A stretch of DNA of 64,000 bases from a virus (lineage: Duplodnaviria; Heunggongvirae; Uroviricota; Caudoviricetes), in IMG/VR virus record IMGVR_UViG_3300005076_000001, positions 23,361 to 87,360 of that record. One strand, given 5' to 3'. Within the stretch, counting starts at the first letter, position 1. Each line of letters opens with the position of its first letter. Made by a program: the position numbers and the translations under genes. The notes under the pieces were generated by a model. The model had not been told where the DNA came from and searched no databases. It saw only the letters and a list, made by a program, of their open reading frames with translations. Below are positions 20,002 to 60,342 of the stretch, piece after piece.

Positions 20002-21987
20002 ATGGCAAATCTTACACCAACAGCAATTTGGGGTGATGTGTTTCAGATCGAAAAAAACACACCTGTTCTTGGTGGCGCAGGAGGTGTTGCGAACCGGCAG
20101 GCACAAGAACTAGCGAATAGGACACAGTTTCTTTACGAGAATATGGGGGAGGAATTTGCCCCTACCTACGCAGCCCTCCGTGCGTATAACGGCAGTGCCA
20201 CTCGGATGCAGGTTGGGGGCCGCACTAACTATTTTGACGGCGCAGGCGGTATTGTTGTTCGTACTGGTAGCCAGCCTGACAACGACGGCACTGTGTGGGT
20301 AGATGCGCTTGGCCGCAGCTGGGAGCGTCAATTTAGTGGTCCGGTAGATATTCGTTGGTGGGGCGCAAAAGGCGGGAACTATAATTCTTCCCCGGCATTG
20401 CAGGCTGCATACAATTACCTTGTATCTACAGGAAACGGTGGAACCATTCTAGTCCCACCTGCACCTGATGGCTATCGATTGGATACCCCACTTAACTTCA
20501 CTGACGCGTGGGTTCCAATTACTATTAAGGGGATGTCTGGGACAAATATCCCAAGCAATCGACCGAATAACTTCCCCTATGGTTCGCTGTTCTGGGCAAA
20601 CACTGGCGGGGTGTGTATTGATATTGCAGGCCGATGCAATTTTGGTTTGGAAGATATTGTTATCGACACGTTCGATACTACAAAATGCCCTACCCCATCC
20701 AGAATTGGTGTGCTTGGCGCTCGTACTACTACGAGCCAAGATAACCAAAACCACCACTTTAAAAACGTGGCGATTTTCATGAAGTCACAACGCCCCAGCG
20801 CCCCGTCCATCGCGCACTATGCTTATGGTACAGAGCTTGGGTATTACGAGAACTGCTGGTACTTTGCCGACCTTCCGGCAGCGTACTGCTTGGCTAACGT
20901 ACTCGGCGTAACGTCTCCACACCGCACACTTGTGGCAAGCGGCGTTTCCGCTACTGCGAACACCGGTAATGGCTGCCGTTTTGTGACAGTTTCCCCCTCT
21001 GACCCTGCCATCTGGTTTGACGGAACTTACGACAACAGCTTTAAGCAGTCATACTTCTACAATGAAAGTGGCGTATTCACCAATCGCCCCGCGCTGCTTC
21101 TAACTGGCAATAACCACAGTTTGTCGGTTGATACTTTCCAGTGCGAAGAGTTTGCAAACGTCTTTGAGCAGTATGGCTCTTTGTTCAACTCCAAGATTAA
21201 GGGGTTTGTTACAAGCACTAGCTACGCAACAGCAGCTAGCGAAATTGGTCGTTTCACTGGCGCGGCGATTACTGTTGATAACAATTTCGAGATTGAAACA
21301 GGCGGAATTGGCGTAGCTTATGAAGCGTACAAAGGCACCACTGCGGCAAGTTCTGTTTTTGCTAACAACAAGTTCAAGTTAAACCAAACTGGCGGATTTA
21401 ATGTATCTTTTGGTGCTAGCAGTAATGTCGGAAATTTGCACTTTGACAAATGGACGGATGACGTGTCCGTGTTGTTGGGTGGGCTAACCAACTCGACAAA
21501 CATCACTGTAAACGGCAAACAAAAAACAATTGGTGCTGTGAATGTTTCTGAGGGGTTTGTTTTCAAGTATGAAGCCAAGCCAAATAGCACGGCCAACTCA
21601 ATTTTGTCTTTTACCGTTCCAAATGGCGATATTGCATATTGTTATTTTGTTGATTACGTTATTAACTCCAGCGCAAAAGAAGCAGTTAAAACTGGCAGAG
21701 TTCAAGTTTCTGTCGCCAGAAAAACTGACCAAGCCATGGTGCTTACCGCTGAGAAATTGCATGAAAACACACTTCAAGCAGCCGGATCAGAAAGCATAAG
21801 CACTACCTTTTCGGTGTCAGGTATTTTTGATCCTGCAACTGGTACGCAGTATGCTTTTCTAACGTGCAACGCCAACTCTTCTGCTGGTGGAACATCCTAT
21901 ATTCGTGGTAGTGTTAAATCGCTAGGCGCAAGCCTACTAAACTCTCCAATTTACGGAAATCAAAATATAATCATTGGAACGGTATAG
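20002..21987 (+). CDS. tailspike / tail fibre with pectate-lyase-like right-handed beta-helix (probable depolymerase)
   Basis: 661 aa; conserved fibre N-terminal anchor; WWGAKGGNYNSSPALQAAYNYL...GGTILVPP pectate_lyase_3-like; body ~55% GC vs ~42% genome. Confidence 0.6.
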   Translation: MANLTPTAIWGDVFQIEKNTPVLGGAGGVANRQAQELANRTQFLYENMGEEFAPTYAALRAYNGSATRMQVGGRTNYFDGAGGIVVRTGSQPDNDGTVWVDALGRSWERQFSGPVDIRWWGAKGGNYNSSPALQAAYNYLVSTGNGGTILVPPAPDGYRLDTPLNFTDAWVPITIKGMSGTNIPSNRPNNFPYGSLFWANTGGVCIDIAGRCNFGLEDIVIDTFDTTKCPTPSRIGVLGARTTTSQDNQNHHFKNVAIFMKSQRPSAPSIAHYAYGTELGYYENCWYFADLPAAYCLANVLGVTSPHRTLVASGVSATANTGNGCRFVTVSPSDPAIWFDGTYDNSFKQSYFYNESGVFTNRPALLLTGNNHSLSVDTFQCEEFANVFEQYGSLFNSKIKGFVTSTSYATAASEIGRFTGAAITVDNNFEIETGGIGVAYEAYKGTTAASSVFANNKFKLNQTGGFNVSFGASSNVGNLHFDKWTDDVSVLLGGLTNSTNITVNGKQKTIGAVNVSEGFVFKYEAKPNSTANSILSFTVPNGDIAYCYFVDYVINSSAKEAVKTGRVQVSVARKTDQAMVLTAEKLHENTLQAAGSESISTTFSVSGIFDPATGTQYAFLTCNANSSAGGTSYIRGSVKSLGASLLNSPIYGNQNIIIGTV

Positions 21988-24072: not shown

Positions 24073-25794
24073 TTATTGGCAAGCCAAACATTCACCACTA
24101 CTGCTACTTACAACACCACGACTACTGTAGATGTAGTAGAGAGAAAGAATGTCTTCGTTCTCAAAAGCCTCTTGATGCACTTCAGCAATCAACTCTTCAC
24201 TTGCATTACCAGCAAAGTAGAGGTTGAGCGACTGACCTTGACAAATACGTCGTTGACGTGCTGCTGCCATACGGATAATTGCTTTCTGGTCAATTTCAAA
24301 TGCTGTCTTGAACACAAGCTTCTCTTCGGGTGTCAGCCAATCAACGTGTTGTACACTGCCCTGACCAGTCACAGTATCGCTGATACACTTCTCTACGTCA
24401 AGCCCTTTCTTCTTAATTAGTTCAAGAAGAACAGGATTGATACGATCTACTTCCCCTGCTGCCGTGAGTTGTGTAAAGCTCATCGCCATATCAGGGCCAA
24501 TACCTTCACTAATACCACCGTAAATCAATGCTGTGCTCTTTGTTGGAGCAATAGCAGTACGATGAGTGAAACGTACACCATACCCTTCACACCACTCAGG
24601 TTCGCCAAGAACAGAAGCAAGCCACTTAGAAGCTTCCAGCGATTGCTTATCAATGTGCGCAGCAATTTGGTTAGAAAGCATGTGTGCCTCAAAACCCTCA
24701 AACGGCAACATCTTCTTCTGGAACAGAGTGTGCAAACCACCTTGACCCAGACCAATTGCCCGACCTTTCACGGTGGAAGCAACAGCTTTCTCAAGACCTG
24801 CAATCTTGCTGCCTTTCTCGATAAAGTCACTTACAACACAATCGAGGAACACAGTGGCAACAAAAACAGCATCAGTATCTTTCCATTCGTCCCATTTACT
24901 GTCATTCATCCAAGAAAGCACACAAGTATATGTCAAATCTTTCGAAGAATGCAGCATAATTTCCGAGCAAAGCTGGCTTGCCTTGACATAAAGTTGCTTG
25001 TCTACGTACATTTGTGGGCGTTGTCGATTAACTTTATCCACAAACATGAAGTAGCCACGACCAAACACCATCTTCAGTTTCAGGGCTTTCTTGAACCGGC
25101 GATGTGCTTCCTTGTCTCCGTTGTTTAGTTTATCAACAAACTTGTCCTTGACAATCCAACCAACATTTCGACCATCAGGCTCTTTCTCGATAACACCCAC
25201 GAGTTCGTCAAAGTCACCGTGCTCAATGTCAACGTAACCAGCCCAGCCACCTCGACGGTTACTGCCTTGGCTCACGTCCACCATATCCTGCACAAAGTGT
25301 TCGTAGACAGGCACCAAACCTGCTGCTGTGCCGCCACGAGAGATAGGGCTACCACGAGGACGAATATCACTCAAATCAGTGGCTGTACCGAAACCTTCCT
25401 TGGTGAGCATAGCAACTTCACGATAAGCATCATAGAAGCCCAGCACACTGTCGTCAATAACACTACCTGCACAAGAGACAGAACAACCACGCTCTGTACC
25501 CATGTTGGCGAGAACAGGTGTACTACCAGCCATCCAGCCTTTCCACATAATCTCAAAGAATGCAGATTCCCATGTACGACCTACAGGCCAGTTTTCAGGA
25601 TAGGCTTTAGGGGCATGTTTTGCTGCTGTCTTTGCAATACGCTCAAATTGCTCACGAACATTGGTTGCTTGATAGAGGTATTTATTCTTGAACATCTGCC
25701 AGCCTGCTGTTGCCATCCAATCAGGAATTAGCCCTTCTTGCTGCAACATCTTACGTTCCATGCTCAGTGCTTCATACGCATTCACTACTGTCAT
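24073..25794 (-). CDS. nrdA: ribonucleotide reductase class I large subunit (no ATP cone)
   Basis: 573 aa; active-site region NMGTERGCSVSC; C-terminal redox-active Cys pair in ...GECLACQ; start overlaps nrdB stop. Confidence 0.8.
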   Translation of the reverse strand: MTVVNAYEALSMERKMLQQEGLIPDWMATAGWQMFKNKYLYQATNVREQFERIAKTAAKHAPKAYPENWPVGRTWESAFFEIMWKGWMAGSTPVLANMGTERGCSVSCAGSVIDDSVLGFYDAYREVAMLTKEGFGTATDLSDIRPRGSPISRGGTAAGLVPVYEHFVQDMVDVSQGSNRRGGWAGYVDIEHGDFDELVGVIEKEPDGRNVGWIVKDKFVDKLNNGDKEAHRRFKKALKLKMVFGRGYFMFVDKVNRQRPQMYVDKQLYVKASQLCSEIMLHSSKDLTYTCVLSWMNDSKWDEWKDTDAVFVATVFLDCVVSDFIEKGSKIAGLEKAVASTVKGRAIGLGQGGLHTLFQKKMLPFEGFEAHMLSNQIAAHIDKQSLEASKWLASVLGEPEWCEGYGVRFTHRTAIAPTKSTALIYGGISEGIGPDMAMSFTQLTAAGEVDRINPVLLELIKKKGLDVEKCISDTVTGQGSVQHVDWLTPEEKLVFKTAFEIDQKAIIRMAAARQRRICQGQSLNLYFAGNASEELIAEVHQEAFENEDILSLYYIYSSRGVVSSSSGECLACQ

Positions 25795-33640: not shown

Positions 33641-33960
33641 TCTTCCTTCGCCTCCCAATAAGCATCAACATCAAACTTATTGTTCTTGTCAAACACCACT
33701 GTCACACGACCACCACAACCATCATAGCAATTCTTGAAAATAATGTAGCTTTCTGTTTCTACAGGTGTACCATGATGCTCGACACCATATGTGTTTCCAT
33801 TTCCGTTGACCAAGTCTTCTTTGTTGTTGTCTGTGTTCCAGTGGACAGCACTGGAAACTGAATACCACAAACAGTCTGTCAAATCGTCAATGTCAGGTGT
33901 GATGAATTTGCTCAGTAAGGTGGCTGCTGCCAGCATTTCTTTAACGTCGTTGTCAGTCAT
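33637..33960 (-). CDS. hypothetical protein
   Basis: 107 aa ORF. Confidence 0.3.
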   Translation of the reverse strand: MTDNDVKEMLAAATLLSKFITPDIDDLTDCLWYSVSSAVHWNTDNNKEDLVNGNGNTYGVEHHGTPVETESYIIFKNCYDGCGGRVTVVFDKNNKFDVDAYWEAKEE

Positions 33961-34585
33961 TTTGTTGCTCCTCTTTCACTTCATACTCCATCAGTGCCTT
34001 ATAAACCCGTGGGTCAACTCTGCCCTTGTAGTGCTCAGCAACAAGCTTCACATACTTTTCCTTTTCTATTTTAAAGAAAGCAAAAGCAGCTTCAGGTGTT
34101 GTGAACTCCTTGTAAACTGTACTCAGGTTCATCGCACCTCTGCGGATTGTTGCAGAATAACGTTCGCCTCTTGACGTGAGTGCAACACCAGTCGGCAACC
34201 CTTTAGTGCATTTCCTGTTCACTTGCAGCAAATTGTTTATAGCAACAGGTACAAAGACACATGTCTCTGGGGAGTATGCTTTACCATTACCGTTAGCCAA
34301 AACATCTTTGTCTAGGTGAAACATCTTTCCGTTATCGTCTAAGGAACAGTATCCAATCTGAGTTTGGCACCACTCCACAAAAGACTGAAAATCGGTAAAG
34401 AGATTAAGAGTCCCTTCATAATAACTCACTTTCGAGTCACTACCAACTGTTCTCCTACGTACACTATAGAATAGTGCAGCAGCGTGCGTTGTTACTTTTA
34501 CATAGGGTTCAGGGTTAAATGCTTTTACCCACAAACCATTCACTTTAAAATCTGGAACATTCTTTCTTGTTATGTATCTGCTCAT
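33953..34585 (-). CDS. HNH-type homing endonuclease with C-terminal AP2 DNA-binding domain
   Basis: FQSFVEW...HLDKDVLANGNGKAYSPETCVFVPVAINN nuclease-like region then AP2-like GVALTSRGERYSATIRRGAMNLSTVYKEFTTPEAAFAFF; paralogous to 45258..46568 and 59761..60342. Confidence 0.5.
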   Translation of the reverse strand: MSRYITRKNVPDFKVNGLWVKAFNPEPYVKVTTHAAALFYSVRRRTVGSDSKVSYYEGTLNLFTDFQSFVEWCQTQIGYCSLDDNGKMFHLDKDVLANGNGKAYSPETCVFVPVAINNLLQVNRKCTKGLPTGVALTSRGERYSATIRRGAMNLSTVYKEFTTPEAAFAFFKIEKEKYVKLVAEHYKGRVDPRVYKALMEYEVKEEQQND

Positions 34586-37242: not shown

Positions 37243-37815
37243 TCATATTTCTTCTCCTTTGTTAACAACATTCCCGAACACATTTATGAGTTCACTCTCA
37301 GCCCCATACAACATAACAGCAACATTCTTATCCTGCTCAAACATTGTTGCTATGTCTTCATTATCTCCCAATCCCCACTCTTTGTCAAGAGAATTTAGAA
37401 GCTTTTCCACTTGCCCAAGCTCCATACGAAGCTGTTTGGCGTTGTAAGAAGCATAACCCATCTCGTACACATAGTCAAGCAGATTGCTTGCATTGACACG
37501 CATAATGACAGTGAAAATGTCCTTCATGCCAACAAGAATGCCTTTTGGGAATTTCTTGTTCTTTACACGGAAATTGATAGGGAGGGCAATATCTAAAGTT
37601 GCCCTGTCCGTCCGTGTGTGGTTTTGCTTCTTAACAATAGCTGCTGTGCAGGCCACAACCACTTTCTGCCATGTTTCAGGAAGAATAGGAGAAAGACGTG
37701 AGTCTATGTATTTAGAAAAACGCCCAACCCCTATTGCATCCTTAGCTTTCTTGTACATCTGTTCCGCTGAGGAACAGCCCTCGAAGAAGGATGTTCCCTG
37801 CCGGTAGTATTCCAT
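37243..37815 (-). CDS. hypothetical protein
   Basis: Track ORF extends to 37917 but that overlaps DNA pol exon 2; internal ATG 37815 has GAGAGGGA RBS. Confidence 0.35.
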   Translation of the reverse strand: MEYYRQGTSFFEGCSSAEQMYKKAKDAIGVGRFSKYIDSRLSPILPETWQKVVVACTAAIVKKQNHTRTDRATLDIALPINFRVKNKKFPKGILVGMKDIFTVIMRVNASNLLDYVYEMGYASYNAKQLRMELGQVEKLLNSLDKEWGLGDNEDIATMFEQDKNVAVMLYGAESELINVFGNVVNKGEEI

Positions 37816-37898
37816 CAATGTCAAATCCCTCTCGCTGGGACGAATGAGAGAGGGGCTTTTCCTAATGCGTTTCTTTTTCCTCACGTCCTTTCTCCATA

Positions 37899-38051
37899 TT
37901 AGTGAACTGAAAACCAAGATTTCCCAATCTTGCCTTCGCCAGCCAAAGGCATTGCTGTCTTCAGCACCTCACCGGCACGCACAAAACCTTGCTCTGCCAT
38001 CTGGCGGATTTCTTCTGCAATCTCAGGACGACACTCAAAACTATATTCATC
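37899..38051 (-). CDS. DNA polymerase exon 2 (C-terminal 50 aa incl. D-E of motif C)
   Basis: minus-strand reading DEYSFECRPEIAEEIRQMAEQGFVRAGEVLKTAMPLAGEGKIGKSWFSVH* aligns to family A pol C-terminus (T7 ...HDEIQVGCRTEEIAQ...EGKMGPNWAICH). Confidence 0.7.
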   Translation of the reverse strand, partial: DEYSFECRPEIAEEIRQMAEQGFVRAGEVLKTAMPLAGEGKIGKSWFSVH

Positions 38052-38277
38052 CAATCTGTTATGTGGTTCGTTACACCACCTTGCATCCCTGCAAGTGTCG
38101 GACTATATCACCATCTCTCACGAGATGCCCCCCGTTTCGAGAGCACTTGCTCCCTACGCCTTTCGGCTAGTCTCTAGGCTTTCAGCTTTCGCTGTTTAGC
38201 ACGGTAAGTTAGCTGTTCTAGCTTTCTCCGTTTAGAGGGGTTTTCAATACGCATCACTGCGCAAGGCCACAATGTCT
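38052..38277 (-). other. group I self-splicing intron (226 nt, no ORF) in DNA polymerase gene
   Basis: 5' exon ends in U (..UACUACCAU); intron starts AGACAUUGUGG (IGS GUGG pairs CCAU giving U.G); R-like GAGACUAG (plus 38167-38174) and S-like GAUAUAGUCC (plus 38100-38109) P7 elements; terminal G; splicing restores HDE motif. Confidence 0.7.
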
Positions 38278-40995
38278 ATGGTAGTAGATTACGCGTTTAA
38301 CTTCGTAACCTTTATAAATATAGTAAGGTCGCCCCTTATCGTCAATGTACATCTCGCCCAACCATGTATCCATGAAACAACAAGCAAGGTCACAAGCAAT
38401 AGCACCACCAGACTGCATGATGATATTAATCAGGCTGTGTTTACTGCGTGTGTTCAGCAACCGTCCATCAATAGCAGGCAGGTGTTTCTTCTTGCCCTTG
38501 GTTTCCCAATACTTCTCCACATTCTCCTTCAGAGCCTTCAGCGCAGGGTTTGAGTCCCAGAACGCATCGTACAGTCGCTTACCTTCTGCCTCCGGCTTAC
38601 CAAGCGTTGTGGCCAGTTTCTTAGGTGAAGAACCATACAACACTGCGTAGCCACCGCTTTTTGCTTTGTTACGCCAAGGTTTGAAACGCGGGTCATCCTT
38701 GTTAAAGTCCACAGCCTTGTAGTCAAAGCCTTTCGTCTCTTCTGGGAAGAAGCTGCATGCCACTTTACTGTGAACATCACCCTCAAGCAACTCTTTTGCG
38801 TATGCACCGTTGTCGTACTTGTGCGTATTACCTGTAATGGTGATGGTGTTGCCCTGCTTCATGACCCAACTACCATGTTTTGTCTTTGGGCACCACACTT
38901 CCTCTGTGCCATAGTAAGATACTGCCATACGCTGCATGGTCACAAAACCTTTCCTGTTCACAGTGACAGTGTTATGTTTACAGCGTACATATTCTCTTGT
39001 AGCAACCGTCAGCATAGCGTCTGTAGCAAGGTACGTGGCGGTCAGGGCGGCATCAAAGTGCTTGCCTTCATTCTGAGAGAATCTCCACCGACCATCCGGA
39101 TTTCCAGCACAAACCTTGTGTGCATTTTCTCCTTCAAAATGACCATCTGCTACCAAGAAACCCTCCAACCACCTTTGCGTTTCTGCCAGTGATTGTTGAC
39201 AGATTCGTTCAGTCCAGTCAATAGAATACTTACCTTTTGCAAACTGCATGTCACAACCGCTGTAGTCGAGTGTTGGTGCATTTACAATAATGTTACAACA
39301 TGTATTCAAGTCTTTTGTCTCAACAACTCTGTCCTCGTAAGTTCGTTTTTGCGTGTTTCTGTATTTTACAAACCACCTGTGGTTGGCAGTTGCTCGTACA
39401 GAAAAATGCGAGTTGCTAATAGTATATGTTTCGGCATCAGAGAACTTGTGCTTGCTTTCTAGTGGTGTCCACTCTTTCTTTTTAGTCTCTGGGTTATATG
39501 CAAGTATATCTTCACCAATGACAAGCTCATTAAAAAACTTCCAACCTGTACGGGTTAGTGCTTGTGCCGACATTGGGACGCAATAATGGCCTGTAATGCG
39601 TTGTTCCAAACCACTGCTGTCAGAGGCTGCAATAACGAAGCCATCTTCAGCACAAAACAAACGCCTAAACTCTTCACCATACACACTACCGACACGAGGC
39701 ACGTTGCAAATTTCACTATGCGCTTGACGATGTGTGTTGGTAATTTTTGTGCTCTTAGGGTTTAGTCGTCCATCCCAATCAAGACGCCACACACCCAACC
39801 AACCCTCAAGCACAGAGAGACGATTACGCAAAGACAGAAAGCGAACAACGTCTTTAGCCAACTCACCTTCAAGAATTTCAAGATTAGGACACAGCTTGCC
39901 CATCTCCTGTAGCTTCGGTGATGTTTGGATAACATCTTTTGTACGCTCGTCTCTGACAGCTTTGCCTTTTGCGTCCTTCTTAATGTTCCAGAAAGTAGGC
40001 ACCCAACCATGCTCTTCTTGTAGCCAAGTTTTCAGATCGTCTTGGTGTTTAAGTTCCATTGGAAGCATAACGTCAAGAACAAGGTTGCCAACAACTTTAT
40101 ACTGCTTACCGTAAAACTCAACAACACCTGTGCTCACCTCTTTACCGTTATGCTTTGCAATAAAGTTTTGCATATGGTGTGAGTAAGAGCCGTCTTTCTT
40201 GTAAGGGTTTTTAGGAAGTGTGTATTCCTTTTCTTCACCTTTGTTCGGACTGCGTGGTGGCAGCTTAGGCTCAACCTTCTCCTTGAGTTCTTCAATCTCT
40301 TTCTCAAGGCGTTCTTTCACCTCAAGAGCAAGCTTCTTGTCAAAAGCATGACCCGTAAACTCTTGTGCTTTCATGAGGAAGAAGCTTTTCTGCCCCATGC
40401 GATAGCTAGGGTGAACCCACGCATCACCGTACATGTCAACAGCCTTACGCCATAGATCGAAGAACACAACAATGTTTGCGTCAACGTCTTGGTCACAATA
40501 CTCTTCCATCAACGGGTGATAGAAAGAAAACTCATGTCCTTTTGTTTCATTGCCAACCATCACACCAATGTCTACGAGGCGCTGGCGATAGTCGATCTTG
40601 TGACTACCAGCTTTGCGCGACAAAGCATCCAAACTGTGTGACTCAAGATCAGGTTCAAGGTACATGGATAGGTAGAGTGTGTCCCAAAACACCACCTCAA
40701 TACCTGCCAGCGTGTCTTTGCCTTTTTTGCCGACGCGAGGTTGTAGGTCGAAATGCTTCCACAACACCCACACATCATAGCCCAAGATATTGTGGCCTAC
40801 GATCAGCGGTTTATCAAACTGAGACAAAAAGTCTACAACGGCTTGTCTCACTTCCTCTTTTGTCATCTGGAACGGACGAAGGCTCAGTATCTTACTGCCA
40901 TCTGCTGTCTTCCAACGCATATACCACACTTGCTTTGATTGCAAATAGAGGTTGTCTGCCTCAATGTCAAATACAATGATGTTACTCCTGTCCAT
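38278..40995 (-). CDS. DNA polymerase, family A (T7 gp5-like) exon 1, with 3'-5' exo domain and an in-frame intein
   Basis: Exo I NIIVFDIEADN, Exo II HNILGYD; motif A DSSGLEQRI; motif B RNKAKSGGYAVLYG; start ATG 40995 with AGGAGAAAG RBS; ORF reads through into intron to TGA 38254. Confidence 0.85.
38827..39582 (-). mobile_element. intein (252 aa) with LAGLIDADG-type motif inserted after pol motif A
   Basis: Begins Cys right after ...EQRITGHY; block B TANHRWF; LEGFLVADGHFEG; ends ...ITITGN followed by Thr; flanks align contiguously to T7 gp5 (AHFMARFDNGEYAHEILNGDIHTK vs GHY/THKYDNGAYAKELLEGDVHSK). Confidence 0.75.
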
Positions 40996-45257: not shown

Positions 45258-46568
45258 TTACACACGTTCCTTTACAGAGTAGCTCATCAGTGCGTGATAC
45301 GCAGCGGGAATGATATGCTCTTTCCATTTCTCAGCAAGACGTCTGGCATAAGCTTCTTTGCAACCACAATATGCTTCATGGGCTTCCTCTTGAGTTGGGA
45401 AGAATCCAAGGTATTCCCTACCTTTCTCTGTGTTGCAACGAGCAATGTACCCAACTGTCTCATTAGGTGTTTTAGGCTCAATGATGTGTACACCACGCAA
45501 GAACTTGGAGTCGCTCGGCTCGATGAGGAACTTGTTAACTTCTGATGGTAGGAAACAACAGCCTTCTGGCCCGTACACTTTGTTGTTAGGAATCAACAGG
45601 TCTTTGTCAAGTTCAAACTTAGGTAGTTGCCAGTTTGGTTGTGCCAAACCCCATTCAGCGAAGTTATGAAAATTCCACCACCTTTGGTCTACCTCTTTAT
45701 CCTCATAGCTTCTACCTGTTGGTTTTTGCAACTCAAACTCATTGTAACAGCGACTGAACATCCTTACCCAATAACCGTACATCCGCTCTGGTGCATGTTC
45801 ACCACGCTTGCTGCCGCGAGGAACAAACCTGCCAACACCAAAGAAACCTCTACCCTCTACAGACGGCTGCGTTGGTGGTTTAATACCGCCACTCAAAATA
45901 TTAGCAGAAGCATTCCAAGACTCGCTACCATCTTGCCATCGAATGAGAACGTCATGTGGCCCTTCGTAGCCAATAACTTCGCCTTCCCAACCGCTATTTG
46001 TTTTGAACTTTTGCCCAATACGGACAGCGCCTGTCGGATGCCTTACATTACCTTCTTTTAGGTTGTTCCAAGAAGTAACAACTTCACTTCCATCCTCAAA
46101 GGCAACTAGAATCTTTGTGGCGTTTACAAACTGTTTAACCACAACACTCCCGTAGTTGTTCGTAGAGAATACAGTACCAATCTCCGGTTTGCTCTTGGTT
46201 GGATGGCGATTGTGCCCTTGTCGAAGAACTGCAATGTTGGTAGTATGCTCCGTTCCATCGCTCAACCACTTAACACGCATCTCGGAGTTTTTCAATACTT
46301 CCACAATCTCAACAACATCACCGTCATGGCAAGGGAATTGTTGCCCAACGTAAGGCTTACCGAACGTAGGATGAAGTGGGCGCTGTTGTTTAATATAAGT
46401 GCCGGTGGTTGTCACAATAGCCCCGTCAAGGTCGAAACGAACGTCAATGTCCTTTCTTCCTCGGTATGCAACAATCTCAACTTCAAGCCCCTGTTTGTTT
46501 GTATAGCGATAGCCTACAAAATAGGCACCTTTCCTACTACCCATATACCCTCCCAATAAATAAGCCAA
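45258..46568 (-). CDS. HNH-type homing endonuclease with four N-terminal ~50 aa tandem repeats and C-terminal AP2 domain
   Basis: Repeats ending in (R/L)HP; nuclease-like WWNFHNFAEW...LDKDLLIPNNKVYGPEGCCFLPSEVN; AP2-like GREYLGFFPTQEEAHEAY; paralog of 33953..34585. Confidence 0.5.
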   Translation of the reverse strand: MAYLLGGYMGSRKGAYFVGYRYTNKQGLEVEIVAYRGRKDIDVRFDLDGAIVTTTGTYIKQQRPLHPTFGKPYVGQQFPCHDGDVVEIVEVLKNSEMRVKWLSDGTEHTTNIAVLRQGHNRHPTKSKPEIGTVFSTNNYGSVVVKQFVNATKILVAFEDGSEVVTSWNNLKEGNVRHPTGAVRIGQKFKTNSGWEGEVIGYEGPHDVLIRWQDGSESWNASANILSGGIKPPTQPSVEGRGFFGVGRFVPRGSKRGEHAPERMYGYWVRMFSRCYNEFELQKPTGRSYEDKEVDQRWWNFHNFAEWGLAQPNWQLPKFELDKDLLIPNNKVYGPEGCCFLPSEVNKFLIEPSDSKFLRGVHIIEPKTPNETVGYIARCNTEKGREYLGFFPTQEEAHEAYCGCKEAYARRLAEKWKEHIIPAAYHALMSYSVKERV

Positions 46569-46592: not shown

Positions 46593-48347
46593 TTAAAATG
46601 AAACGTCCTGCTTACCCACCCAATCATCGAAGTCGTGCAATGAGTGGGTTTGTCCATCATAGAACAGTTTTCCACACTCACCTGTTGTACCTGCTCCGCG
46701 ATTCTTAGGCATGAAGAGGTTTGTAGTGTTGCGAATTATAGGGTCTTCGTTCATCTTGTCTCGACTTGCAATGATAATCCATGCAGCGGATTTAACAAGC
46801 GTACTACTACCCTGAACACCGCTCTCTGTGCCAACACCACCTTGACTACCATCCTTCTCACCCGTACCAACCTTACGTTGATGGGCAATCAGTATAAAGC
46901 TTACAGGATAGTTTGTCACCATACCCTTCATCCACATCATAAGCTGTGCTTGTTCGTCCACAGTGAGCATATCGAAGCTGTCAGAAATGGTGTCCCATAC
47001 GATGATTTGACAATCACATTGAATGATGAGCTGTTCAATGCGTTGCTTCATAATGTCGATGTGGCAGTCACGATCATCAATTACAAACCAACGATCTGCG
47101 CCGTCTGGTGTACGGAACAGTTCATTAGCCTTCTCAATTACCCACTCTTGTTCAAGAAGCTCAACCTTCTCTTCTTTAGTAAGAGCACCAAGTTTTACAC
47201 CGATATGGCGAGATAACACAAGCTCAGAATACTGGCCCAAGTTCTGTTCCATTGAAATGACGCCAACTTTCAGTTGACCGTTCATTAGCCAATGGTAACA
47301 GCACTCATTGACAATAGTTGATTTTGCTGCACCTGTAAATGCAGAAATCAGGCCAATCGTTCCCAGTGCTGGGCCACCTGCTGTCATGCTGTTAAACTTC
47401 TTCATGAAGGGCGGAAACTCAATACGTGGTGCATGTGCTTCTTTGATAACAGCATCAAGAAAACTACTACTACCTGCAATCCCTTGCGGTACATAAGGTT
47501 TTGCCTTCAAAAACGCATTCAGAAAATGGCGAGAACGATCTTGAATAAGCATCTCGTTAGCGTCTTTAAGGTCAATGTGCATAACGTACATCTTCCCTTT
47601 GGGCAGAACATCTACAAGCTTCTTGACAGCATCTTGACCAGCCTTATCGTTATCATAACAAACAATAATTTGCTCGAAACGATTTAGCCACTCGTAGTGG
47701 TGTTTCAATTGCTTAAAGCTGGCTGTCTCGCCCACAACAGCACTGACGATAGGTGTTGGCTCATACTCGCTGTCTGGCTTGTTAAGCATTGCATACGCAG
47801 ACATTGCATCAACTTCACCAGCGGTGATGAGAATCTTCTTGCTGTTGCTGTTACGGAATTTGTGCTGACCAAACAAATCACTCTCACTGCCCATGCTGCC
47901 AACTGTGTAGAATGTTTTTGGAAGCTGCCTTACTTTAAAGCCCGTCAGAACACCATCTTTGAAGATTGGATAGTATTGCTCAGTTGGCTCACCTGTGGTT
48001 GTGTCAATCTTATGGCGAACGTAAAACGGTGTGTACGCCCAATCAGGAATGCCACGTACTTTGTAGCCTTGTGGTGTGGTGTACCCTTTAATCTTCTCAA
48101 TCTCTTCTTTAGTTAGTGGTTCCTTGCTGCTCACCTCTTCCTCCATTTCATCAGTCCAGTCAAAAACACCAAGCCCACGTCTCTCTAATTCATCGTCGGA
48201 CAACACAGAGAAGCCGCAGCTGAAACAATGACCGCCAAGCCCCTCGCCATAGAAATAAAAGTTATCCCCAGAATGATCTTGGTTGTTCTCACGGCAGCGC
48301 GGGCATGGGTTTTTACCGATTTTAAAATCAACCGCGTAGTGGTTCAC
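46593..48347 (-). CDS. primase-helicase (T7 gp4-like)
   Basis: N-terminal Zn ribbon CPRC...CFSC; TOPRIM-like ITAGEVDAMSAY; Walker A AFTGAAKST; 584 aa. Confidence 0.8.
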   Translation of the reverse strand: MNHYAVDFKIGKNPCPRCRENNQDHSGDNFYFYGEGLGGHCFSCGFSVLSDDELERRGLGVFDWTDEMEEEVSSKEPLTKEEIEKIKGYTTPQGYKVRGIPDWAYTPFYVRHKIDTTTGEPTEQYYPIFKDGVLTGFKVRQLPKTFYTVGSMGSESDLFGQHKFRNSNSKKILITAGEVDAMSAYAMLNKPDSEYEPTPIVSAVVGETASFKQLKHHYEWLNRFEQIIVCYDNDKAGQDAVKKLVDVLPKGKMYVMHIDLKDANEMLIQDRSRHFLNAFLKAKPYVPQGIAGSSSFLDAVIKEAHAPRIEFPPFMKKFNSMTAGGPALGTIGLISAFTGAAKSTIVNECCYHWLMNGQLKVGVISMEQNLGQYSELVLSRHIGVKLGALTKEEKVELLEQEWVIEKANELFRTPDGADRWFVIDDRDCHIDIMKQRIEQLIIQCDCQIIVWDTISDSFDMLTVDEQAQLMMWMKGMVTNYPVSFILIAHQRKVGTGEKDGSQGGVGTESGVQGSSTLVKSAAWIIIASRDKMNEDPIIRNTTNLFMPKNRGAGTTGECGKLFYDGQTHSLHDFDDWVGKQDVSF

Positions 48348-59768: not shown

Positions 59769-60342
59769 TAATTTACACTGGGAAGATTATTTCTACTACG
59801 ACGAAACAAGTCCTAGTTGTCTAAGGTGGAAAGTTTCTGTGTACAGTGGATGTGGGTTAAAAACACAGAATGTCAGAGAAAACCAAGAAATCCAGCATAA
59901 AGATCGTGAAGGGTATTTTGTTGTTGGGTTGATGAAGAGGAGACATAAAGTACATAGAATAATCTATGAGATGTTCTACGGAGAAATCCCAGAGGGCATG
60001 GTGATAGACCACGTAGATAGAGACAAAGAAAACAACAAGATTGAGAATCTGCGCGCAGTTTCATGCAAAGTTAATTCCAGAAATACTAAAAGATACTCCT
60101 CCAACACGTCTGGGGTGACAGGGGTTAGTTTGCAAACCTCTTATAAGTCTTCAGGAAATTACACAGCGTATGTTGCAAATTGGACAGATTTAGAAGGAGT
60201 AAAACACGGAAAGTCATTTTCCATCCTTAAATATGGGGAAGAATTGGCATTGAAATTGGCCGAGGAGTATAGACGCAGTAAGATTGCGGAGCTTAATGCG
60301 CAAGGAGCTGGGTACAATGACACACATGGGGATGTGCTATGA
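59761..60342 (+). CDS. HNH_3 homing endonuclease with AP2 domain, inserted between ligase halves
   Basis: IDHVDRDKENNKIENLRAVSCKVNSRN HNH_3 motif; AP2-like GVTGVSLQTSYKSSGNYTAYVANW...ELALKLAEEYRR; own SD GAGGGGGA; ATG overlaps ligase-N stop. Confidence 0.75.
   Translation: MSDNLHWEDYFYYDETSPSCLRWKVSVYSGCGLKTQNVRENQEIQHKDREGYFVVGLMKRRHKVHRIIYEMFYGEIPEGMVIDHVDRDKENNKIENLRAVSCKVNSRNTKRYSSNTSGVTGVSLQTSYKSSGNYTAYVANWTDLEGVKHGKSFSILKYGEELALKLAEEYRRSKIAELNAQGAGYNDTHGDVL

Follow-up and report, generated by a model that had tools for sequence, protein, structure and literature searches.

A candidate ORF-less group I intron between the His and Asp codons of the HDE motif in a T7 gp5-type DNA polymerase gene of an uncultivated myovirus

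The DNA analyzed here, in the following called the window, is a stretch of 64,000 nucleotides from a tailed-phage record in IMG/VR. It contains genes for a portal, a protease, a major head protein, a tail sheath, a tape measure and a baseplate, which identify the phage as a myovirus, together with a T7-type replication module made up of a gp4-like primase-helicase (46593-48347), a gp5-like polymerase, an exonuclease, an RNA ligase and an RNR. The T7 gp5-like polymerase is accordingly carried by a myovirus and not by a T7-like phage. The RNR at one point seemed to be split at 25794, and this is simply the boundary between neighboring small- and large-subunit genes. Since megablast searches of phage genomes with the polymerase region and with 25 kb of the window returned no match, the phage has no close sequenced relative, and when viral and metagenome contigs were scanned with the last 233 aa of the polymerase as protein seed, the relatives found were of at most 37% identity.

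The polymerase gene is read from the minus strand and comes in two parts. The first part lies in an ORF that opens at either GTG 41034 or ATG 40995 and ends at 38254, and the ATG, with GAGGAG upstream, is the likely start of exon 1. The C-terminal end of its translation reads ...KRVIYYHRHCGLAQ before the stop (in a longer view ...KGYEVKRVIYYHRHCGLAQ), with the stop falling seven codons past ...YYH. Exon 2 encodes DEYSFECRPEIAEEIRQMAEQGFVRAGEVLKTAMPLAGEGKIGKSWFSVH (DEYSFEC...SVH, followed by the stop), and U38278 and G38051 enclose a gap of exactly 226 nt (38277..38052). The sequence-only reading of this DNA had described a polymerase ORF devoid of motif C with the C-terminus of the protein encoded 226 nt downstream, and this description is correct to the base with respect to both coordinates and sequences.

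Exon 1 aligns with T7 gp5, with the polymerase of Pseudomonas phage vB_PsaM_M1 (M1) and with P0003, which is a 955-aa metagenomic protein. The M1 enzyme is the closest sequenced phage polymerase, with 47.9% identity over 99% of the 704 aa of the predicted mature protein (tblastn), and it runs uninterrupted across the junction (...RRIGYVHDEVEFECE...). P0003 is 49% identical, end to end, over the 956-aa predicted spliced precursor; it is likewise continuous at the junction (...GYYHDEIEFEC...), and it carries the same insert in the same place as the polymerase of the window (see below). Because of this homology to uninterrupted polymerases the exon junction is fixed independently of any RNA model. 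The predicted ligated-exon sequence is ...TACTACCAT/GATGAATATAG..., where the slash marks the junction, as it does in the sequences that follow.

When the exons are joined as CAT/GAT the protein gives a match to T7 DNA polymerase chains that starts at residue 318 and reaches the C-terminal His, spans positions 113-380 of the 381 in Pfam DNA_pol_A, and places HDE over HDE in motif C (viyyHDEysfecrp in the joined protein on mawvHDEiqvgcrt in T7). Subtracting the 252-aa insert from the 906 codons and adding the 50 aa of exon 2 gives a mature protein of 704 aa, and the T7 gp5 chains in PDB likewise have 704 aa; the arithmetic stands because the insert is an intein. It had been claimed that joining after the His restores the HDE motif (YYH/DEY), that the mature product has the length of T7 gp5, and that the enzyme is a T7-like DNA polymerase. 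All three claims hold up: the junction aligns with T7 VHDE, the arithmetic agrees with the PDB chain length and with the end-to-end alignment, and the alignment with T7 gp5 down to the C-terminal His makes the enzyme gp5-type.

The 252-aa insert in exon 1 had also been taken for an intein. It starts with a Cys (C1), contains TANH and ends in ITGN before a T, with G and not H as the penultimate residue, and it is missing from the M1 polymerase at exactly GHY/T. An exhaustive HMMER search of 1.8 billion representative proteins found 2161 relatives of the insert within larger proteins; the host proteins are for the most part family A polymerases, and several insertion sites are used. Each of the 36 family members inspected starts with Cys and ends with GN or SN (mostly ITGN) followed by T, C or S, again with no penultimate His. 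The family profile matched the solved mini-inteins Spl DnaX (8.6e-6), AceL NrdHF (3.8e-4) and NrdJ-1 (2e-3), and its center weakly matched LAGLIDADG endonucleases. Used as a single sequence, the insert of the window gave no match in Pfam, NCBIfam, PHROGs or a phmmer search of PDB, a word-indexed homolog search returned one fragment, and the single-sequence AlphaFold model was unusable (pLDDT 34). Pfam intein-related domains were found in one of ten family members scanned (P0005), and the domain libraries may lack a dedicated profile for this insert family. Judged by its C1, terminal N and +1 T, its absence from M1 and the match of the family profile, the insert is an intein, as proposed. The same kind of double interruption, by an intron and an intein, is present in nrdA of Pectobacterium phage CB7 (PMC7344957).

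The features of the 226 nt between the exons are listed in Table 1. The predicted intron begins with AGACAUUGUGG, carries GAGACUAG and GAUAUAGUCC internally and ends in ...AGAUUG with G as the last base, and no sense-strand ORF of more than 32 aa is found within it. In P1, GUGG of the internal guide sequence (38270-38267) pairs with exon CCAU (38281-38278), giving a U.G pair at the 5' splice site, and the exon-guide pairs in the window copy are four only. The remainder of the guide, CAUU (38274-38271), can pair with GAUG of exon 2 (38051-38048) to form P10. An in-frame stop is present at intron nt 19-22 in all six ORF-less copies, that is, the window copy and the five homologs described below. 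P7.1 and P7.2 placed between P7 and the 3' strand of P3, and linked by G-U-A, are a mark of subgroup IA2 (PMC3428280), and because this arrangement is present in the window intron we assign it to IA2 by that criterion.

Table 1 Coordinates of the polymerase exons, the intein, the predicted intron with its elements, and the HNH genes of the window.
Feature	Position	Strand	Remarks
Polymerase exon 1	38278..40995	minus	906 codons, ATG 40995 to CAT (His); intein included
Intein, 252 aa, LAGLIDADG-like center	38827..39582	minus	in frame after motif A, GHY/C...ITGN/T
Predicted group I (IA2) intron, 226 nt, ORF-less	38052..38277	minus	Rfam match, covariation with 5 homologs, MFE fold
Internal guide sequence CAUU+GUGG	38267..38274	minus	read from sequence
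P2 hairpin UGCGCA-GUGA-UGCGUA	38248..38263	minus	6 pairs, 4 changed on both sides among homologs
In-frame UGA stop in P2 loop	38254..38256	minus	intron nt 22-24
P3 5' strand	38240-38235	minus	P3 is CCCCUC with GGGGGG
P4-P5	38231-38201	minus	AA/AA J4/5 loop
P6/P6a	38200-38178	minus	GAAA cap
P7 5' strand	38174-38168	minus	G-A(bulge)-GACUA
P7.1	38167-38158	minus	GCC-GAAA-GGC
Linker between P7.1 and P7.2	38157-38155	minus	GUA
P7.2	38154-38139	minus	GGGAGC-AAGU-GCUCUC
P3 3' strand	38133-38128	minus	GGGGGG
P8	38127-38112	minus	
J8/7, then P7 3' strand	38105-38100 (P7 strand)	minus	J8/7 GUGAUA; P7 strand UAGUCC
P9	38095-38080	minus	
P9.1	38079-38063	minus	loop GUAACGA; then 3' tail
Terminal guanosine (omega-G)	38052	minus	intron end ...AUUG/GAUG
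Polymerase exon 2	37899..38051	minus	50 codons and stop; gives Asp-Glu of motif C and C-terminal His
HNH gene, free-standing	33953-34585	minus	resembles T7 gp3.8-like protein of M1
HNH gene, free-standing	45258-46568	minus	resembles T7 gp3.8-like protein of M1
HNH-like stretch	~59899-60114	plus	36% over 74 aa to HNH motif region of CB7 intron endonuclease

The splice sites, the terminal G and the ORF-less state that had been read from the letters were verified in the sequence. The same is true of the U.G pair in P1, with CCAU and GUGG invariant in all six ORF-less copies and in CB7, and of the P7 elements, both strands of which are present. As a separate observation, the P9.1 loop GUAACGA is invariant in the six ORF-less introns, and a pairing of its CGA with UYG of J2/3 (38245-38247) is possible, the base that faces the G being either U or C; such a pairing may be a tertiary contact.

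A local Rfam scan of 451 nt matched the element to Intron_gpI (RF00028) over the full length of the model (1-253) with 45.9 bits against a cutoff of 50 and an E-value of 1.2e-10. When all 64 kb of the window were scanned with Rfam, at the gathering threshold as well as at E <= 0.1, the intron was lost to the speed filters, and chance matches to HIV-1_SD and sR7 were all that came back. The MFE fold recovers the intron helices independently (z = -3.8).

For the analysis of covariation the six ORF-less introns (the window copy together with L016, L028, L135, L137 and L138) were aligned with MAFFT. In this set of only six sequences a 68-pair structure with 14 helices is paired in 96.5% of the cells, and in 32 of the 68 pairs both partners have changed (55 cells). 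With 500 column shuffles, not one of the five measures used was reached, and sliding the 3' partners by 1-3 columns reduced the pairing to 37-44% and the number of doubly changed pairs to 2-8; part of the structure had been derived from the window sequence itself, and this gives it an advantage over the slid controls in percent paired. Several compensatory pairs were found in each of P2, P6, P6a, P7.1, P7.2, P8, P9 and P9.1, two in P4, one in P3 (C-G to U-A in L138) and one in P10, where the guide of L138 has changed from A to G and the exon from GAU to GAC. P1 and P7 do not vary across the alignment, and this is what one would expect of the helices that hold the splice site and bind G.

The window copy is the most divergent member of the set, with 62-68% identity to the other ORF-less copies over the full length. 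Its distal P4/P5 is in another register than in the five homologs and is scored as unpaired there in the alignment; in its own register the fold pairs AGCU with AGCU. Because of this difference in register, a defect in the P4-P6 domain of the window copy is possible. The homolog L028 scores 98.7 bits to Rfam Intron_gpI, which makes the lineage unambiguously group I. That the gap should be something else, either an artefact of assembly or a frameshift, a recoding site, or another ribozyme such as GIR1, seems extremely improbable, as at least eight independent contigs, besides isolated phages, have an insertion at this codon boundary and the group I fold is supported by covariation, and read-through of the first ORF would reach a stop after seven codons. 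The GIR1 model does match the region weakly; its score of 17.9 bits against a cutoff of 100 led us to reject it.

Homologous introns were searched for in both phage genomes and IMG/VR. In phage genomes, blastn matched the P7-P8 core of the intron in unannotated stretches of 58 records; the core is 83-85% identical to those of CB7, phiTE, CR9 and A5-4, and 80-85% identical across many phages. A junction pattern, CCATA-N(1-8)-ACATTGTGGC, occurred at 120 loci, five of which have the P7 element downstream, and among those five a polymerase-like ...YH exon context was present in three only (L016, L028 and L127). A scan with a core pattern was far more specific and gave nine loci. In IMG/VR the pattern scans yielded ORF-less homologs at the identical CCAT/GAY GA site, five of them distinct and 224-266 nt in length, in addition to duplicates (L141 with L016, and L139 with L137) and further HNH-bearing copies. 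The nucleotide position of the insertion is identical in the window, CB7, phiTE, L127 and the IMG/VR copies.

The ORF-less IMG/VR introns (L016/L141, L028, L135, L137/L139 and L138) resemble the window intron in site, size class, architecture and the in-frame stop in P2. They differ from it in the sequence and register of P4-P5, and in their host polymerases, which are of the rv5-like type and have a long exon 2. We have seen no annotation or description of any of these introns.

A second group at the same site is formed by the second of the DNA polymerase introns in rv5-like phages (Vequintavirinae: Pectobacterium phages CB7 and phiTE, Escherichia phage A5-4 and Salmonella phage SSE121). Here the insertion point is ...YYH/DEY... 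as in the window, and the introns share with the window copy the guide sequence ACAUUGUGGC, the P7-P8 core (83-85%) and the 3' end. In CB7 the upstream exon ends ...IIYYH/K followed by a stop, the junctions read ccat/aagtaACATTGTGGC ... cttttg/GATGAATAC, and the protein resumes with DEYQLEV. In both CB7 and phiTE the intron match falls between two CDS pieces annotated as "DNA polymerase". The rv5-like introns are about 690 nt long (687 nt in CB7) and encode an HNH endonuclease, whereas the window intron is 226 nt and ORF-less; the HNH ORF of CB7 begins in the P5 loop region, crosses P6 and stops just short of P7. The host polymerase is only distantly related to that of the window, and its C-terminal exon encodes 116 aa as compared to 50 aa.

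Ever since SPO1, family A polymerase genes of phages have been known to contain group I introns. Those of SPO1, SP82, Bastille and Pf-WMP3 (site 674), phiL7 (site 676), LUZ24 and the Vibrio N4-like phage VCO139 are group I introns, mostly IA2, and like the window intron they lie in conserved motifs of family A polymerases. They differ from it by their insertion sites, with 674 and 676 in the fingers and the VCO139 intron near motif A, and by carrying endonuclease ORFs in all cases; the VCO139 intron belongs to the same core sequence family as the window intron. From Klenow residues D882 and E883, we take the His of HDE to be site 881. Sites 674, 676 and 881 (E. coli numbering) are listed for introns in family A polymerases in the Pf-WMP3 paper, where the introns of phiI and W31 are placed at 881 and in subgroup IA2, with an HNH ORF in P6a (PMC3428280).

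According to the same paper, phiI and W31 share with the window a T7 gp5-type family A polymerase, site 881 and the IA2 elements P7.1 and P7.2; they are podoviruses with HNH endonuclease I-TslI in P6a, as opposed to a myovirus with a GAAA-capped P6a (PMC3428280). The window intron is inserted between His and Asp and its ribozyme is homologous to those of CB7-type members, which places it in the site-881 lineage, whereas the membership of phiI and W31 is taken from the literature. Precedents thus exist for the site, the subgroup and the gene, and splicing has been reported for a homolog. The traits of the window intron itself are the lack of an endonuclease ORF, the new phage lineage and morphotype (myovirus), the intein in the same gene and the previously unnoted ORF-less relatives.

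The intron core family (80-85% over P7-P8) was also observed in other phage genes, at L004 (VCO139, 1800-2620), L005, L006 and L007. Among the genes interrupted are an N4-like polymerase, with the intron near motif A, a T5-like helicase, the terminase region of a Nitrincola phage and the tape-measure gene of a Bacillus phage; the pieces to either side are annotated as separate CDSs, and the listed features include no intron.

On the evidence of the sequence we consider it very probable that 38277..38052 is an IA2 group I intron without an endonuclease, located between the His and Asp codons of HDE (motif C) in a T7 gp5-type family A polymerase gene of an uncultivated myovirus. We infer from this that the window copy splices and is catalytically active, and each of the following steps is inferred along with it. 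The GUGG-CCAU helix P1 would set the U.G wobble at the 5' splice site, and by the standard group I pathway a free guanosine in the P7 pocket would attack after U38278. Guide CAUU would then pair with GAUG of exon 2 in P10 and line up exon 2, G38052 would take the place of the guanosine in the pocket, and ligation of the exons would produce ...YYH-DEY.... The 5' site has the sequence C-CAU in all intron-bearing alleles, while the empty alleles have CAC (P0003) or GUG-CAU (M1), and this restriction fits the requirement of P1.

Translation of the unspliced RNA would result in a polymerase ending in ...YYHRHCGLAQ before the stop, lacking the two catalytic carboxylates (the Asp and Glu of motif C). 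Because the UGA sits in the P2 loop, ribosomes on unspliced RNA would stay out of the ribozyme core. The spliced mRNA would encode the 956-aa precursor, from which the 252-aa intein must also be excised before the 704-aa enzyme is obtained. It is conceivable, though unlikely, that the double need for RNA and protein splicing in one essential enzyme acts as a regulatory gate on replication.

The homolog at the same site in CB7 (with the HNH gene CB7_50, between CB7_51 and CB7_49) is reported to splice in infected cells, on the basis of RT-PCR and Sanger sequencing (PMC7344957). The same paper reports that one HNH-associated intron of CB7 did not splice and cites the split NrdA of Aeh1 as a precedent (PMC7344957), which lends some weight to the reading that the window element is a group I intron which has decayed and lost its ability to splice. 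In that case the gene would be either a pseudogene or the source of two non-covalently associating polypeptides of 913 aa and 50 aa, the latter starting from TTG 38054. The Rfam score under the gathering cutoff and the P4/P5 register unlike that of the homologs are consistent with decay. However, the core elements are all intact and the differing helices are preserved by compensatory changes; both polymerase exons keep open and conserved frames, with exon 2 resembling its relatives over the whole length. As for two polypeptides, the TTG is indeed in frame ahead of exon 2, but it is not preceded by a Shine-Dalgarno sequence, and motif C would be divided between two chains after the His. No second polymerase domain gene was found among the large ORFs of the window examined. 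We therefore regard decay as improbable and retain the reading of an intact, splicing-competent intron as by far the better account.

Since it has no homing endonuclease ORF, the window intron is unable to mobilize itself and is not self-mobile. It represents either what is left of the HNH-bearing copies at the same site in rv5-like phages or a form that preceded them. No second copy of the intron core is present in the window. The ORF downstream of the polymerase (37243-37917) was considered as an intron-associated endonuclease and rejected, as it has no family match or nuclease signature and its homolog stands beside the intron-less polymerase of L152.

The exon flanks may hint at where the intron came from. 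The window reads RVIYYH/DEYSFEC (38278-38310 and 38019-38051), its nearest relatives RVGYYH/DEIEFEC and RIGYVH/DEVEFEC, and the rv5-like polymerases RIIYYH/DEYQLEV. The window flanks thus differ from the nearest intron-less relatives at -3, +3 and +4. The Ile at -3 and the Tyr at +3 are the residues of the intron-bearing rv5-like polymerases. They may represent a co-conversion tract from horizontal homing, an argument that consists of two residues only and is given low weight here.

A life cycle of introns and endonucleases has reportedly been proposed by Bonocora and Shub. In such terms the window intron might be a live ORF-less stage, acquired horizontally from an rv5-like donor (with Ile -3 and Tyr +3 as the tract) and either awaiting an endonuclease or mobilized in trans by a free-standing HNH protein, and we hold this scenario to be unlikely. 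The more specific proposal that the intron is actively mobile in trans through a free-standing homing endonuclease (collaborative homing), so that the missing ORF would be a functional state and not a loss, also appears unlikely to us. The window does contain two free-standing HNH genes and an HNH-like stretch resembling the CB7 intron HNH (Table 1), in M1 an HNH gene directly follows the intron-less polymerase, and the flanks match rv5-like donors at -3 and +3, unlike the nearest relatives. However, no HNH gene adjoins the polymerase in the window, the next ORF is the one without nuclease signature discussed above, and the co-conversion argument again comes down to two residues.

Two observations concern the HNH genes themselves. 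In M1 (L001, 3883-4422) the annotated HNH homing endonuclease gene overlaps the stop of the polymerase gene, which is both intron-less and intein-less; this layout recalls the free-standing endonuclease beside gene 5 of T3 that Bonocora and Shub are said to have described in 2009. In the window, the 436-aa protein encoded beside the primase-helicase matches HNH families only in residues 185-434 (approximately the C-terminal 250 aa), and about 180 residues at its N-terminus carry no assignment.

With respect to annotation, gene callers would report a truncated polymerase without motif C and an orphan 51-aa ORF from this locus, and related isolates have been deposited with the polymerase as separate CDS pieces. 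The signature C-CAU/A...ACAUUGUGG...GUGAUAUAGUCC...G/GAYGA would correct such annotations. Given the filter-dependent Rfam misses, other small introns in the window or in similar phage genomes could escape notice. The intron family at the HDE site gains ORF-less members and a third phage morphotype and lineage, and with empty, ORF-less and HNH-bearing alleles it offers comparative material on the association of introns and endonucleases; the current understanding of group I introns is unchanged by the window intron. Finally, the HIV-1_SD match obtained in the whole-window scans is a 19-nt hairpin in the tail-fibre region (21070-21088, minus strand) with 30.3 bits against a cutoff of 30 and E = 0.023, and it is almost certainly a chance match to a short model.
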